This document shows, one piece after another, positions 19,960-41,523 of a stretch of 64,000 nucleotides of DNA. Both the position numbers and the translations under genes were made by a program. Location: assembly GCF_056712565.1 (NCBI RefSeq), contig NZ_CM160072.1; one strand, written 5' to 3'. The notes under the pieces are model-generated. The model was not told where the DNA came from. It was given only the letters and a program-made list of their open reading frames with translations, and did no database searches. The number at the start of each line of letters is the position of its first letter. Position 1 is the first letter of the stretch.

Positions 19960-19997
19960 TAAAACTATTCTCTGTTGAACCAGAGAGAATCCGTAAT

Positions 19998-20031
19998 GCC
20001 GGATGCGGTGTAAACACCTCATCCGGCATAC
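19998..20031. repeat. REP (repetitive extragenic palindrome) element
   Basis: gccggatgcggtgtaaacacctcatccggcatac between convergent yegS and gatR. Confidence 0.5.
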
Positions 20032-26434: not shown

Positions 26435-26456
26435 AACAAAGTACGCGTGGTTTTAT

Positions 26457-26490
26457 GCCGGATGTGGCGTTAACGCCTTTTCCGGCCTAC
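26457..26490. repeat. REP element
   Basis: gccggatgtggcgttaacgccttttccggcctac. Confidence 0.5.
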
Positions 26491-35966: not shown

Positions 35967-36305
35967 ATGACCATTAAAAATAAGATGTTGCTGGGTGCGC
36001 TTTTGCTGGTTACCAGTGCCGCCTGGGCCGCACCAGCCACCGCGGGTTCGACCAATACCTCGGGAATTTCTAAGTATGAGTTAAGCAGTTTCATTGCTGA
36101 CTTTAAGCATTTCAAACCAGGTGACACCGTCCCAGAGATGTACCGCACCGATGAGTACAACATTAAGCAGTGGCAGTTACGTAACCTGCCCGCGCCTGAT
36201 GCCGGGACGCACTGGACCTATATGGGTGGCGCGTACGTGTTGATCAGCGACACCGACGGTAAAATCATTAAAGCCTACGACGGTGAGATTTTTTATCATC
36301 GCTAA
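35967..36305 (+). CDS. rcnB: Periplasmic protein RcnB (YohN)
   Basis: 112 aa from ATG 35967 (MTIKNKMLLGALLLVTSAAWA...), signal peptide. Confidence 0.8.
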   Translation: MTIKNKMLLGALLLVTSAAWAAPATAGSTNTSGISKYELSSFIADFKHFKPGDTVPEMYRTDEYNIKQWQLRNLPAPDAGTHWTYMGGAYVLISDTDGKIIKAYDGEIFYHR

Positions 36306-36331
36306 AAAAAAGCCCCCTCGGAGAGAGGGGG
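36304..36331 (-). terminator. Rho-independent terminator after yehA (possibly bidirectional with rcnB)
   Basis: CCCCCTC-ggaga-GAGGGGG stem; run of 8 T on minus strand. Confidence 0.6.
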
Positions 36332-36386
36332 GAATGCAGACACCTTAATATTTTTATTATTAGCCACTTGCTCGTCTTGCTTGTTA

Positions 36387-37421
36387 TTAGTCGTATTTCA
36401 CGTTGATTAATGCGGTTGCCTCCAGTGCGCCAGATTTAACTTTGTTTGTATCGTAGACGTAGTAACTGGCCGTTATCGGAATTGAAACCGTTGTATCTGT
36501 AAGTTTTGACTTTGCCGCAATTTCTTTTAAATTTGTATATCCTTTACTGCTGTTAGTGATATTTAAAAGTGTGACTGGCGTACCATTACTTTCAAGAATA
36601 AATCCTACGCCATTATCTTCCGCACCTTTCAGGATCGTGTTGCTGTTGGTTAACAAGTCAGAACTTGATAAATACACCTGCATTTTCCGTGATGTTTGAT
36701 TTTGTTGACCTAATAAATTTTTACAACGCAGAATAATATCCCCTTTTTTACTATTTATTGTTGTTTTGTTACCTGTGGCTGGTAATTGTGAAACGGGAAT
36801 ACTCTCTAACGTAATTAATAAATCGTCCGGTTTGCAGGTTGTGGTTATCGGGTTGTATGACAATGTCAGATTAAAGGAATAGACACCTGCATTTTGTGCC
36901 AATGCATTTCTGTAGCTATTTACACATGCATCCCATGACTTACCACCTAATAAACACAGTAGAAATTGTACTGCGGCACTCCCGCGTGTCGATGATGAAG
37001 CACTGGATAATGTCGCAACTCCATTAATCATCACTGAACCACCGCCCCCCGCAGAAACATTCACTTTTGCATTACTGGCCGCAGGTGTCACCGTCACCGA
37101 ATAACCACTGGTGAAACTGGTCTGATTATTTGACAACGTAATGTTGTTTTTATTGGTCCATTCAAAATGTAAATTTAATTTAATGGTATCGTTATAAAGT
37201 CCAACAATAATATCCGACGGGCTCATAGGTGTGATAGTATTTGTACTCACGCATGACGAATCATTAAAATTATGCTCATATGTCGCCATTTGTGTTTGAG
37301 TAAGTGCAAAATCCCCCTGAACAACCAAATTGTGCTGAACAGATAACTCACTATAACATGCCGCATAGCTCACAGGCATAACCATCATTATTACTATAAA
37401 TAGCATTATGCGAATTTCCAT
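36387..37421 (-). CDS. yehA: Fimbrial adhesin-like protein YehA
   Basis: 344 aa, last gene of chaperone-usher operon. Confidence 0.8.
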   Translation of the reverse strand: MEIRIMLFIVIMMVMPVSYAACYSELSVQHNLVVQGDFALTQTQMATYEHNFNDSSCVSTNTITPMSPSDIIVGLYNDTIKLNLHFEWTNKNNITLSNNQTSFTSGYSVTVTPAASNAKVNVSAGGGGSVMINGVATLSSASSSTRGSAAVQFLLCLLGGKSWDACVNSYRNALAQNAGVYSFNLTLSYNPITTTCKPDDLLITLESIPVSQLPATGNKTTINSKKGDIILRCKNLLGQQNQTSRKMQVYLSSSDLLTNSNTILKGAEDNGVGFILESNGTPVTLLNITNSSKGYTNLKEIAAKSKLTDTTVSIPITASYYVYDTNKVKSGALEATALINVKYD

Positions 37422-37436
37422 AGAACCACCTGACTA

Positions 37437-39917
37437 TTACTGGCAAATATAATTTCTACTTTCATCAATCTCTTTACCGAAGGTGATTGTGCATGAAAGC
37501 CCTTGTTGCTTATCAATTGCCACATTAACCGATGGCGGTACTTCATTGGTGCGAATAAATAACTGGCTTCCCTGGCCGACAACACCAATATTATGACCAT
37601 GGATATCATTGACTTCATAACCAAACGTTAATGGTTGCCCATCCGCTCTTAACGCTTTTATAAACCATGGCTTGCGCTGATCGGTATCAAAATTAACCAG
37701 TACAACCGCGCCGCGATAAGGGGCGGCAATTTTCCGGTTGCCACGTAATTCTGCTTCGCTATCGCTTTGTGACACATCCAACATCAGGTAATTTTCCCGA
37801 TAAGGTGTCATTCCGTCGTATACCACCACTCCATTACGGTTTGTTGTGCGATATTTTTGCCCATTGACATAAGCATCTTTAATTCCTGGCGCATTCATCA
37901 CAGCAAACGTTTCAGAAAGACGGTTTGCCAGATTAACGCCACCCGACCAAGCGACAATGCCCCCTGAAACACTGGCTCCAGCCTGTCGATAAGCACTCGA
38001 CTGACTATAACTGCCATTCACTGTCGCAACCGGCGCGTTCCAGGTTAAATTCGCCCCAGCTGTCGTTTCATTTCCCTGATACTGATAACTCAGGTTGACC
38101 CCATAGTTAAACTGATCCCGGCTTCCAACGGTTCCTGATAATCCCGTATTATTTGAGGCAACCCCCTGATCATCAAACGTCGTTGAGTTAGACATATATA
38201 TTTGCCGACGAGGCGTCGTAACGTCATCACCCCAATCAAAGGGAATCGATATAAAAATATTAAAACGTTTCTCTTCATGATGATTCTCGTCATAAGCATG
38301 GCTTGCCGCGAGGGTATAGCTTATCCTTCGCAGGTTGTTGGAATAACTCAACTGATAATCCTTACTGCTGCCGCTACGCCCCCAGTAATCTCGCCATAAC
38401 GTACTTAAGGACACAGAACCCCAGCCTTCTGGCAATGACTGACTCATATTGGCAGAGAAGCTATTTTTACGGCCAAAATCGTTCTGGTAATAATCGGCAA
38501 TGTCATAGATATCGTTTTCATCACGGCGATAATTATCTTTATTGTTTGCCCATACGTGATCATTAAATGTCCGATAATCACGCGACGAATAACGCCAGGC
38601 CGCCAGACCAAAACGTGTCGACGTTTGGCTCACAAATTTGTTGTAGGCAATTTGATAACTTTGCCCGTCAAACACATCGCCGTTGTCTTGTTTACTATGC
38701 GACTTCGTGGCATCGACGGAAATGGCACCAATGCGTGTATTCCAGCCAGTCCCCAAAGTGAACGCGTAATAATTATTCGCGACCATCGAGCCACCATACA
38801 GCGTTAATAAGTTATTAAAACCATACTGATGACCCACCTGGACAAAATCACTTTGTTTGCTCGCCCCTTCAATATGGCTACGACCCGCCGCAAAATCATA
38901 TTTCGACACGCCGGGTTGCAGCATATTTGGTACCGCTGCATAAGGCACCAGATAGGTGGTTACCGAACCGTCCGCCTCTTTCACGCTGACATCAAGATCC
39001 GCTCCACCACCGGCCAACTGCAAATCTGTAATCGCAAACGGGCCAGGAGGAACCTCTTTCTGATAAACCACAAAACCATTCTGTTCAATAGTTACCAGCG
39101 CGTTACTCTGAGCAATCCCCTGCACCCGTGGCGTAAAATTTTGTTTCGAGTTAGGCAACATCTGCATATCACGAAACAACCGCACACCGCTGAAGCGAAC
39201 AGAATCAAAAATATCGCTTGATGTGTACATATCACCCACACGAAGCGTGCCGAGAAGTTGGGCAAATCCACGTTCCAGATACAGGGTATTGCTTTTCCAC
39301 ACCCCTGGATTGTTATTTGTTTTACTGAAACTGGCATCAGAATGCAGTTGCCACCCCAATAAATTTAACCCGCTGTTAAAACGTACATATGTACTCTTGC
39401 TATTACCGGACGCTTTATAATCGCTGTAATACTGACTCATATAATAAGAGGTATAAAACGCATTAATACCCCGCTCCCAGTTTTCAGGTGGTACATAGCC
39501 ACTTTCCAGTTCTTCCACCCAGGCCTGCGGGACACTGAAATCGAGACGAAAAACTCCGATATCCCAGGTATAGCTCCCGCCCTGAATAAGTTGCTTAAAT
39601 GTTAAACATTGCTTACCGCTGGCAAAGCTATCGGTATTAATGCCTAACCGCTTGATCATTTCCCTTGATAAACATGTTTCTTGCGGGTTGTCTTTAACAA
39701 TGATCTCATATTTCCCACGCCATTGCTTATTGACATAAATATCGATGTCATACTGCCCCGGCAAGGGCTGATTATCTTCAAGACGAATATTTGAAACCTG
39801 CTGGTCTTTCATTCCACCTATCATGAAATGGGTATCAAAGGTTTCTTCAGCTGCATAAGCTTCAATGCCGATCAATAACGCTACGATTGCTGATGCAAGT
39901 GGGGGCATTCTCAACAT
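37437..39917 (-). CDS. yehB: Fimbrial outer-membrane usher YehB
   Basis: 826 aa from ATG 39917; ORF-track start 39932 is a TTG. Confidence 0.85.
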   Translation of the reverse strand: MLRMPPLASAIVALLIGIEAYAAEETFDTHFMIGGMKDQQVSNIRLEDNQPLPGQYDIDIYVNKQWRGKYEIIVKDNPQETCLSREMIKRLGINTDSFASGKQCLTFKQLIQGGSYTWDIGVFRLDFSVPQAWVEELESGYVPPENWERGINAFYTSYYMSQYYSDYKASGNSKSTYVRFNSGLNLLGWQLHSDASFSKTNNNPGVWKSNTLYLERGFAQLLGTLRVGDMYTSSDIFDSVRFSGVRLFRDMQMLPNSKQNFTPRVQGIAQSNALVTIEQNGFVVYQKEVPPGPFAITDLQLAGGGADLDVSVKEADGSVTTYLVPYAAVPNMLQPGVSKYDFAAGRSHIEGASKQSDFVQVGHQYGFNNLLTLYGGSMVANNYYAFTLGTGWNTRIGAISVDATKSHSKQDNGDVFDGQSYQIAYNKFVSQTSTRFGLAAWRYSSRDYRTFNDHVWANNKDNYRRDENDIYDIADYYQNDFGRKNSFSANMSQSLPEGWGSVSLSTLWRDYWGRSGSSKDYQLSYSNNLRRISYTLAASHAYDENHHEEKRFNIFISIPFDWGDDVTTPRRQIYMSNSTTFDDQGVASNNTGLSGTVGSRDQFNYGVNLSYQYQGNETTAGANLTWNAPVATVNGSYSQSSAYRQAGASVSGGIVAWSGGVNLANRLSETFAVMNAPGIKDAYVNGQKYRTTNRNGVVVYDGMTPYRENYLMLDVSQSDSEAELRGNRKIAAPYRGAVVLVNFDTDQRKPWFIKALRADGQPLTFGYEVNDIHGHNIGVVGQGSQLFIRTNEVPPSVNVAIDKQQGLSCTITFGKEIDESRNYICQ

Positions 39918-39932
39918 AGGCAGCTCCTGCAA

Positions 39933-40607
39933 TTAAATTTTGTCACTAATATAATTGCCATGGTCATCGATAATGGTCAGATGCCAGTTATTTGCATTAT
40001 TACTTTTGACATTAACACTCTGACTTTCTAAGGGGGCAATCATAATAGTTTCATAATTGACTTTGACATTATTAGCTTTGACATCCGAAATCGTCACCCA
40101 ATTAGCTGAGTCATTTTTTATCACCAATCCATTGCCACTGCGATTTACCAGTAACTTTTTAAAGGTCACTTTATTTACCGGAGCAATACCCGCTGGCCGG
40201 TAAAACAACTTAATTCTGTTTTGCATCGCAAACTTCAGTGCATTCTTACCTTCTTGTTCTGGACTATTTGGTGGAATATCCAGAACATTCAGATAAAAAA
40301 TACTCTCTTTATTAGTGGGGAGTTTATTCGGCATAATTTTAATTTTTACTTGCTGCCCGGAATTTGCCCCTATTTTTGCCACTGGTGGCGTTAACATGAA
40401 AGGAACCTGAATTTTTTCTGGTGGTAATGACGTATCGCCATCATCAATCCACGCCTGCATCAGCGAAGAACGGTTTCCCTGGTTCATCAACTGCACCATC
40501 ACTTCTTTGTGCTCTGCCGGGTAAATAATACGCGTCCCGTAGATAACAATACCGGCATGTGCAGGAAGGACCATAGAAGAAATGAGTAAAGCTAATAATC
40601 CTTTCAT
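39933..40607 (-). CDS. yehC: Fimbrial periplasmic chaperone YehC
   Basis: 224 aa with signal peptide; SD AAGAGG upstream. Confidence 0.8.
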   Translation of the reverse strand: MKGLLALLISSMVLPAHAGIVIYGTRIIYPAEHKEVMVQLMNQGNRSSLMQAWIDDGDTSLPPEKIQVPFMLTPPVAKIGANSGQQVKIKIMPNKLPTNKESIFYLNVLDIPPNSPEQEGKNALKFAMQNRIKLFYRPAGIAPVNKVTFKKLLVNRSGNGLVIKNDSANWVTISDVKANNVKVNYETIMIAPLESQSVNVKSNNANNWHLTIIDDHGNYISDKI

Positions 40608-40620
40608 CTTAATGCCTCTT

Positions 40621-40651
40621 AAATTAAAAGGCCGCCATGGAGATAGCGGCC
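40621..40651 (-). terminator. Intra-operon hairpin/attenuator between yehD and yehC
   Basis: GGCCGC...GCGGCC stem followed on minus strand by TTTTAATTT. Confidence 0.4.
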
Positions 40652-40687
40652 ATGTTAATTACCTGAAGAATCTTGCAATTTTATTTA

Positions 40688-41230
40688 TTAATCCTGCGCC
40701 ACACGCATAATCAGGGAAGATAACACATCACCTGAATTCACTGAGTTATCTGTCAGTTTCAGGTATTTTGCTTTAAACGGAATGGCATATTGACCGTCCG
40801 CTGTTTTATAACTCTCGATGTTGAAAGGTGCAGAAACATCCAGGACATCGCTGTTATCACCTAAATAGAGATAATAACCCACGGTATCGTTGCTACTGGC
40901 TATCGCCTTATCGTTTCCGGTTATTTTATCGTTGGTAATCAACGAGAGTTTTACACCAGCAACTTCTTTCGGACAGCTAATTTTTAACATGCTGCTGGTT
41001 ACACCGACTGCACCATCATAGGTCGAGTATTTAGCTTTACCTTCAAAGACCGTAGTTGGTACAGTTGGCATATTAATACTTAATGAATCGCCACCTGCTT
41101 CGAATTTACACGGAGATTCTGCAATATTCCCTTTAATGGTTAATGTTCCGGTATCAACGTCTGCGGCAAATACCCCAGCGCTCATAAAAAAAGAAGAAAA
41201 AACAGCGGCAGCAATAATTGAACGTTTCAT
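40688..41230 (-). CDS. yehD: Major fimbrial subunit YehD
   Basis: 180 aa with signal peptide. Confidence 0.8.
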   Translation of the reverse strand: MKRSIIAAAVFSSFFMSAGVFAADVDTGTLTIKGNIAESPCKFEAGGDSLSINMPTVPTTVFEGKAKYSTYDGAVGVTSSMLKISCPKEVAGVKLSLITNDKITGNDKAIASSNDTVGYYLYLGDNSDVLDVSAPFNIESYKTADGQYAIPFKAKYLKLTDNSVNSGDVLSSLIMRVAQD

Positions 41231-41523
41231 AATATGCTCCTTAATAAAATCTATTTTTGGTTGTTAAGAGTCTGTATCTCTTGGAAACAAATTTCTCACA
41301 CCAAAAAAAGTTGCCGCAATGTAAACACATTGTTTTATTGATTTAAAGCAAATTAACTATTGCAATATAAACACAACAAATACTTAAGCACATTAAATAT
41401 TTATCAAATCTATTAATTAATGTGGATTTCTATAAATGGTATTATTAATATCAATAAAAAAGCTTAAATCATTCATGTAAATGATTTAAGCTTTCTAAAT
41501 CCGATTAAAACCAGGGTGGCAAA

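Follow-up and report, generated by a model that had tools for sequence, protein, structure and literature searches.

A pilus rod contains very many copies of its major pilin, up to ~3,000 FimA subunits per type 1 pilus, and far fewer copies of chaperone, usher and adhesin are needed. As pilin demand lies far above machinery demand, expression from one promoter calls for a device that sets the ratio, and the textbook solution is a hairpin placed behind the pilin gene. In fimbrial clusters, subunit genes have been described as generally carrying a rho-independent stem-loop at their 3' end (PMC3373541), and a partial terminator lies between papA and papH (PMC6524683). Protective 3' hairpins, for example at malE-malF, represent a mechanism that is widespread in E. 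coli operons (Dar and Sorek 2018, PMC5927463). The spacer after the major pilin gene can also yield a small RNA: RNase E releases FimR2 from the fimA-fimI spacer, and this RNA affects motility, biofilm formation and CsrA in trans. The strong primary fimA 3' end in K-12 Term-seq data (4543708) is the exact 3' end of annotated FimR2 (K-12 4543674-4543708; positions 775-809 of our fimA-fimI extract), whose hairpin carries no U-tract and gave z = 0.03 against shuffles when the spacer was folded.

We examined the yehDCBA operon within a 64-kb window, meaning the whole stretch of 64,000 nucleotides analysed, in which all positions are counted. The window shows 100% identity to E. coli ATCC 11775, in whose annotation the genes flanking the spacer of interest are yehD (fimbrial protein) and yehC (chaperone). 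Yeh pili are widespread in E. coli and have been implicated in gut colonisation and pectin binding. A 2026 structural paper (PMC12778044) assigns the major subunit to the first gene of the operon and the tip adhesin to the last, renames the genes in transcription order, so that yehD becomes YehA, and assigns Yeh to the gamma-4 clade together with its sister Yhl and Salmonella Stc. This assignment, together with annotation and Pfam, bears out the view of an earlier note on this DNA that yehD encodes the major subunit and yehC the chaperone. The features of the locus, with the evidence for each in brackets, are as follows.

41524-41805, minus strand: yehE, upstream of yehD
40688-41230, minus strand: yehD, major pilin subunit, 180 aa, first gene of yehDCBA (ORF, RefSeq, Pfam Fimbrial PF00419)
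40608-40687, minus strand: yehD-yehC spacer, 80 nt (sequence)
40652-40687, minus strand: AU-rich 36-nt spacer from the yehD stop to the hairpin, poorly conserved (sequence)
40630-40651, minus strand, which is the coding strand of yehDCBA: RNA hairpin GGCCGCUAU-CUCC-AUGGCGGCC, 9-bp stem and 4-nt loop (fold and covariation)
40651-40643, minus strand: 5' arm of the hairpin (sequence)
40642-40639, minus strand: loop CUCC (sequence)
40638-40630, minus strand: 3' arm of the hairpin (sequence)
40621-40629, minus strand: interrupted U-tract UUUUAAUUU, its first base abutting the stem, 7 of 9 bases U, broken by AA (sequence)
40615-40620, minus strand: yehC Shine-Dalgarno (SD) sequence AAGAGG, 7 nt from the ATG (sequence)
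40607-40605, minus strand: yehC ATG (sequence)
39933-40607, minus strand: yehC, periplasmic chaperone, 224 aa (ORF, RefSeq, Pfam PapD_N/PapD_C)
37437-39917, minus strand: yehB, outer-membrane usher, annotated start used (ORF, RefSeq, Pfam)
36387-37421, minus strand: yehA, two-domain tip adhesin, 344 aa (ORF, RefSeq, Pfam, PMC12778044)
36304-36331, minus strand: operon-end terminator-like hairpin CCCCCUC-UCUCC-GAGGGGG followed by CUUUUUUUU, -14.1 kcal/mol, unbroken 8-U run

The earlier note had described a GC stem with a T-run on the coding strand at 40621-40651, just upstream of the yehC ribosome-binding site, and these coordinates proved exact. A hairpin is present between yehD and yehC: read along the minus strand, the yehD stop is followed by 36 AU-rich nucleotides, the 9-bp stem-loop, UUUUAAUUU, the SD sequence AAGAGG beginning at 40620 next to the U-run, CAUUAAG and AUG, so that the stem ends 9 nt before the SD sequence and the U-tract reaches it. 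The stem comprises six G-C pairs, two A-U pairs and one U.G pair and has a predicted minimum free energy (MFE) of -15.7 kcal/mol (z = -4.5), a stability reached by none of 200 dinucleotide shuffles. In a 32-nt MFE scan of both strands of the 64-kb window, it was the 78th of 875 local minima by stem energy alone, a rank that reflects the many stronger stems supplied by GC-rich coding sequence, and it took first place among the stems that have six or more U in the next 9 nt, ahead of the metG, yehA-end and yehE-end sites. Both its GC-rich stem and loop, which fall within the ~5-14 bp and 3-8 nt usual for intrinsic terminators, and the U-rich tract directly 3' of the stem, which in such terminators covers ~7-9 nt, therefore have the expected anatomy in the window allele. 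A simple terminator-pattern scan of the region returned 7 sites against 7.7 expected and so showed no enrichment; the pattern class is uninformative here, and the argument is carried by the strength and conservation of the site. The hairpin sequence has a single match in the window even with three mismatches allowed, and an Rfam E-value scan of 36000-42500 gave only chance matches (E > 1) at the site, with no repeat family among them. A bidirectional terminator was considered and rejected, as the plus strand (ATGTTAATTACC) has no T-run after the stem and folds more weakly (-13.1 kcal/mol).

The organisation of the locus is that of papA-papH, with the major subunit gene followed by promoterless assembly genes in the order yehD-hairpin-yehC-yehB-yehA. 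A consensus scan of the spacer and its surroundings found no sigma-70-like promoter from which yehC could be expressed on its own, so the downstream genes would require read-through, and an excess of pilin mRNA would be expected. As at papA-papH, the hairpin directly follows the major-subunit gene and precedes the assembly genes, and a GC-rich stem and U-run lie on the coding strand. The two systems differ in that the next gene in yeh encodes a chaperone instead of a minor pilin, and in that the yeh U-run is interrupted and is missing in sister alleles; moreover, partial termination is documented at papA-papH and would be predicted at yeh. The likeness to the 3' stem-loops of malE-malF, of the Dar and Sorek set and of cfaAB is that of a stable, conserved hairpin at the 3' boundary of a cistron needed in excess. 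Such protective structures need no U-tract, in keeping with the O157-type, E. albertii, E. whittamii and Citrobacter werkmanii versions of the yeh spacer. Unlike the multi-copy REP element of malE-malF, however, the yeh hairpin is single-copy and locus-specific, and it is intergenic, whereas most of the Dar and Sorek structures lie within the downstream coding sequence. With the fimA 3' UTR and FimR2 it shares the position of a stem-loop in the spacer after the major pilin gene, but it is far more stable than the FimR2 hairpin, has a U-tract in the window allele and lacks the CsrA-binding GGA of the FimR2 loop. No sequence resemblance between the two was apparent by inspection of the unaligned sequences.

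Other structured elements were seen in the same window. An 18-bp AT-rich perfect hairpin (AGAAAGCUUAAAUCAUUU-ACAU-GAAUGAUUUAAGCUUU followed by UUUUAUUGA; 41457-41496, minus strand) lies ~28 nt past the yehE stop and ~230 nt upstream of yehD, and from its sequence looks like a terminator that would insulate the yehD promoter region from yehE transcription. At 61156-61193, a GC-rich 11-bp palindrome (GGCGGCCATG...CATGGCCGCC; ~-22 kcal/mol on either strand) fits exactly between the convergent ORFs 60682-61155 (plus) and 61196-61723 (minus) and has the appearance of a bidirectional terminator-type hairpin shared by the two. Among 32-nt folds, the most stable in the window are REP-like palindromes at 19996-20029 and 26455-26487 (GCCGGATG...CATCCGGC), which are unrelated in sequence to the yeh hairpin.

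To assess conservation across genera, one genome per species was scanned with YehC, which yielded 42 loci. Every enterobacterial locus features a GC-rich hairpin in the pilin-to-chaperone spacer, with differing sequences. The hairpin was found in all 31-33 yeh/yhl/stc-like spacers of Enterobacteriaceae, where it belongs to the top ~1% of all 32-nt windows in the respective locus (median fraction 0), and comparison with dinucleotide-shuffled spacers gives z = -2.9 to -9.3. A hairpin also follows the pilin gene in distant loci of Luteibacter, a Pasteurellaceae species and Bordetella, while the Acinetobacter rudis locus has none at this place. When 12 Escherichia spacers were aligned with MAFFT, 98% of the stem cells proved to be paired; two of the nine pairs have undergone compensatory G-C to A-U double changes and two pairs show one-sided compatible changes, and RNAalifold returns the identical nine pairs and no other helix. 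A second MAFFT alignment took in 20 spacers, from Salmonella, Citrobacter, Klebsiella, Superficieibacter and second Escherichia loci; here 93.9% of cells are paired (14-63% in slid controls), compensatory changes occur at seven of the nine pairs, none of 500 shuffles reaches the observed values and RNAalifold recovers the helix unaided. The sense strand gives the more stable fold in 16 loci and the antisense strand in 4, and there are 14 G.U cells versus 2 A.C cells, which together indicate that the structure is selected in the sense RNA and not in the DNA. By these comparisons of sequence, the hairpin is clearly under selection as an RNA structure, and it has the stability, boundary position and compensatory substitutions of a protective 3' stem-loop. 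The distance from the stop codon of the pilin gene to the start of the hairpin is 36-44 nt in Escherichia and often only 2-10 nt in other genera, and the hairpin-to-ATG distance ranges from 13 to 87 nt among the relatives.

Within E. coli, the region is single-copy (median one place per genome) in ~5,260 of 5,426 complete genomes, and the hairpin is kept in at least 5,255 of the 5,263 genomes that have the region. Among about a dozen sampled alleles, and setting aside two disrupted ones, variation is limited to the loop (CUCC, CCCC or CCC) or to G-C to G.U changes, and in some alleles such a change of the outermost pair lengthens the U-run. The SD-region block AAGAGGCATTAAGATG is nearly invariant across the 12 Escherichia sequences; the only exceptions are K-12, whose fourth-to-last base is A, and one strain with an A-to-T change upstream. 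A divergent allele occupies the same E. coli locus in ~360 genomes, comprising O157:H7 and its relatives; by our own reasoning this is probably the 'Yhl' type of PMC12778044. Its hairpin, UGGCCGCCAU-AUUC-AUGGCGGCCA, is a perfect 10-bp stem (-19.4 kcal/mol) followed by GCAUAAAUAUAAGAGG and thus by no U-tract, whereas the Yeh-type allele combines a weaker stem that includes a U.G pair with a U-tract. The hairpins of the two allele types are 86% identical, with the same base at 17 of 18 stem positions, while the upstream spacer is 65% identical, compared with 51-67% at third codon positions of the flanking genes; the proteins share 86% (YehD) and 88% (YehC) identity (O157:H7 extract 1534-1620 versus window 40608-40687).

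Two rare natural lesions of the hairpin were encountered. In E. coli TW10573 (NZ_CP127035.1; locus extract 1465-1535), a 15-nt deletion takes out exactly the hairpin (window 40630-40651), leaving ACAUGGCCGCCUUUUAAUUU, and both yehD and yehC are intact. In E. coli DETEC-P61 (NZ_CP116152.1; locus extract 2555-2640), an IS1 element is inserted in the 5' arm, at ATGGCCG|GGTAATGACTCC (window ~40645); the strain has lost yehC, yehB and most of yehA and carries a second IS1 upstream of yehD.

The hairpin also touches gene annotation. In K-12 MG1655, yehC (b2110) is annotated as 720 nt with a start at NC_000913.3 2191645, 45 nt upstream of the start used elsewhere; this ATG lies immediately 5' of the hairpin (window 40652-40654), its G overlapping the first stem base. 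The long frame is open only because the K-12 loop (CCC) is 1 nt shorter, and the same frame meets a TAA in the window allele. The downstream ATG has an SD sequence and a signal peptide and is picked by PGAP in all other strains, and the K-12 start at the hairpin is probably a mis-annotation. The mechanical yehB ORF in the window opens at TTG 39932, abutting the yehC stop, and the RefSeq start is ATG 39917.

The variable part of the element is the U-tract. It was ranked with a d'Aubenton-Carafa-type d-score, which serves for ranking only (d'Aubenton Carafa 1990), with the U count taken over the 8 nt after the GC core. The window hairpin scored +13.5, alongside the ends of metG (+20.5), yehE (+14.9) and yehA (+7.4), the last being the operon-end hairpin that serves as the internal comparison. 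Scores of the E. coli Yeh-type alleles ran from +2.6 to +16 (+13.5 to +16 in three of the four sampled), while the O157-type allele, E. albertii, E. whittamii and two other Escherichia scored about -38 to -46. Only 7 of the 33 related spacers had d > 0. At least 5 of the 8 bases were U in 15 spacers, against a rough expectation of ~3-4 at 35% U, and 2 or fewer in 8 spacers; the O157-type allele, E. albertii, E. whittamii, Escherichia spp., C. werkmanii and several Citrobacter lack the tract. The U-tract was thus retained in E. coli Yeh-type alleles and did not accompany the stem across orthologous loci. What is conserved is therefore the hairpin and not a canonical terminator, and given the variability of the U-run among the 33 spacers, selection acts on the hairpin and not demonstrably on termination.

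For the window allele we lean, on the strength of its sequence features, towards a leaky intrinsic terminator that also serves to cap the yehD mRNA at its 3' end. This reading is favoured because the U-run abuts the stem, scores like the real terminators of the window and is interrupted; the break in UUUUAAUUU, compared with eight consecutive U at the operon end, fits a lower efficiency at an internal site. In the proposed mechanism, the stem-loop would act on the sense transcript and raise yehD mRNA relative to yehC-yehB-yehA mRNA. A fraction of RNA polymerases would release the transcript at ~40622-40627, ahead of the yehC ribosome-binding site, and the others would read through. The short yehD transcript, or one cut downstream by an endonuclease, would then be capped at its 3' end by the hairpin and so shielded from 3'-to-5' exonucleases. 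Both termination and 3' protection would lead to more pilin mRNA than machinery mRNA, and in alleles without a U-tract the protective role alone would be expected, as at fimA-fimI. The suggestion of the earlier note that the element is a partial terminator favouring the major subunit thus holds in part: it agrees with the terminator anatomy after yehD, the documented fimbrial precedents and the selected structure, and it is weakened by a U-run that is not conserved (d > 0 in 7 of 33 spacers, none in the O157-type allele). Termination, its partial nature and an effect on mRNA/protein ratios are what we infer for this site.

RT-PCR in EHEC 86-24 detected the yeh locus as one transcript (PMC11287998), which indicates qualitatively that read-through past the hairpin occurs, in a strain carrying the U-less O157 allele. 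In K-12 the operon is silenced by H-NS within a static protein-occupied domain, and it is barely expressed in laboratory strains. The Term-seq tables of Adams 2021 list no 3' end for yehD, yehC or yehE, an absence that is uninformative because metG and rcnB are also missing. The supplements of Dar and Sorek (PLoS Genet) do not include yeh, and the fim operon is present there only as an operon name. A SlyA microarray gives a single fold-change for the whole yehDCBA operon and hence no per-gene ratio. Neither the Klebsiella mrk paper nor a 2022 review of chaperone-usher regulation mentions terminators or stem-loops, and a paper on riboswitch entropy includes yeh only as windows upstream and downstream of the operon, not the yehD-yehC spacer.

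The main alternative, which we consider possible but distinctly less probable, is a purely post-transcriptional role, in which no useful termination takes place and the hairpin is a 3' protective structure: RNase E would cut in the AU-rich stretch downstream or in yehCBA, exonucleases would stop at the hairpin and a long-lived yehD mRNA would result. The conservation pattern itself, with a hairpin that is kept and a U-tract that is not, agrees with this, as do the stronger stems of U-less alleles (-19.4 kcal/mol in O157 versus -15.7 kcal/mol in the window), and the mechanism is widely documented in E. coli by Dar and Sorek. In many genera the hairpin lies 2-10 nt past the stop codon, where a terminating ribosome would be expected to hinder co-transcriptional folding and not later protection, and the primary fimA 3' end of K-12 (4543708) follows a hairpin and then GUGCGAUA, which has no U-run. 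Against it, however, the window allele does have a U-run, which abuts the stem and scores like terminators of the same window, and the U-rich tails of 15 of the 33 spacers, above the rough expectation of ~3-4, suggest that termination contributes in many lineages. The U-less alleles probably rely on protection alone. The reading that the element is no functional RNA at all, but a palindrome arisen by chance, a REP-type repeat or a site at which a protein binds the DNA, is disfavoured and extremely unlikely; the unenriched terminator-pattern scan (7 sites versus 7.7 expected from shuffles) speaks for it, but compensatory changes extend across genera, the G.U pairs favour the sense RNA fold over an antisense fold or a DNA cruciform, and no Rfam repeat family was matched. 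A REP or BIME element was rejected on the grounds that the hairpin is single-copy both in the window, with three mismatches allowed, and in each E. coli genome.

The remaining readings give the hairpin a function beyond the yehD 3' end. That it serves as the stability module of a FimR2-like small RNA from the yehD 3' UTR is improbable, even though it occupies the same position as FimR2, in the spacer after the major pilin gene, a stem-loop is required for FimR2 stability, and deletion of the yeh locus in EHEC alters the expression of 130 genes although no regulator is encoded there (PMC11287998). The site matches no Rfam family, the spacer that would hold the seed is 65% identical between the allele types and so conserved only to the degree of synonymous sites, a GGA motif for CsrA is missing from the loop, and no small RNA has been reported at yeh, an operon barely expressed in laboratory strains. 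Control of yehC translation, or of the 5'-end stability of a processed yehCBA mRNA, by the hairpin or a larger fold around it is very unlikely. The end of the hairpin lies 9 nt from the SD sequence, single-sequence MFE folds pair the upstream spacer with the U-run and SD region, and papA mRNA is stabilised by 5' hairpins (PMC5927463); however, RNAalifold on the 12 Escherichia sequences keeps the 9-bp hairpin only and leaves the outer helix unsupported, the putative partner sequence varies freely, and the hairpin-to-ATG spacing changes from 13 to 87 nt in relatives. The larger fold, joining the upstream spacer to the U-run and SD region, was rejected as unsupported by the alignment fold.

A leaky terminator that also caps the yehD mRNA therefore remains the reading we prefer for the window allele. 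As a bolder proposal, and a long shot, the hairpin may be the 3' end of a trans-acting small RNA from the yehD 3' UTR or, in a milder form, the Yeh-type and O157-type alleles may represent two evolved settings of the pilin:machinery ratio, one based on termination and one on decay. If the small RNA existed, its loss would explain the ~130 genes altered in the EHEC yeh deletion, which include the LEE type III secretion genes.

Post-pilin hairpins have long been known as a kind, and the analysis shows that the little-studied Yeh pilus and its Yhl and Stc relatives carry a selected one; the pattern of a conserved stem with a variable U-tract is its modest added value. The TW10573 deletion and the DETEC-P61 IS1 insertion are natural mutants that can be used as test material. 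The gain and loss of the U-tract at one orthologous locus offers a natural comparison of termination-based and decay-based tuning.
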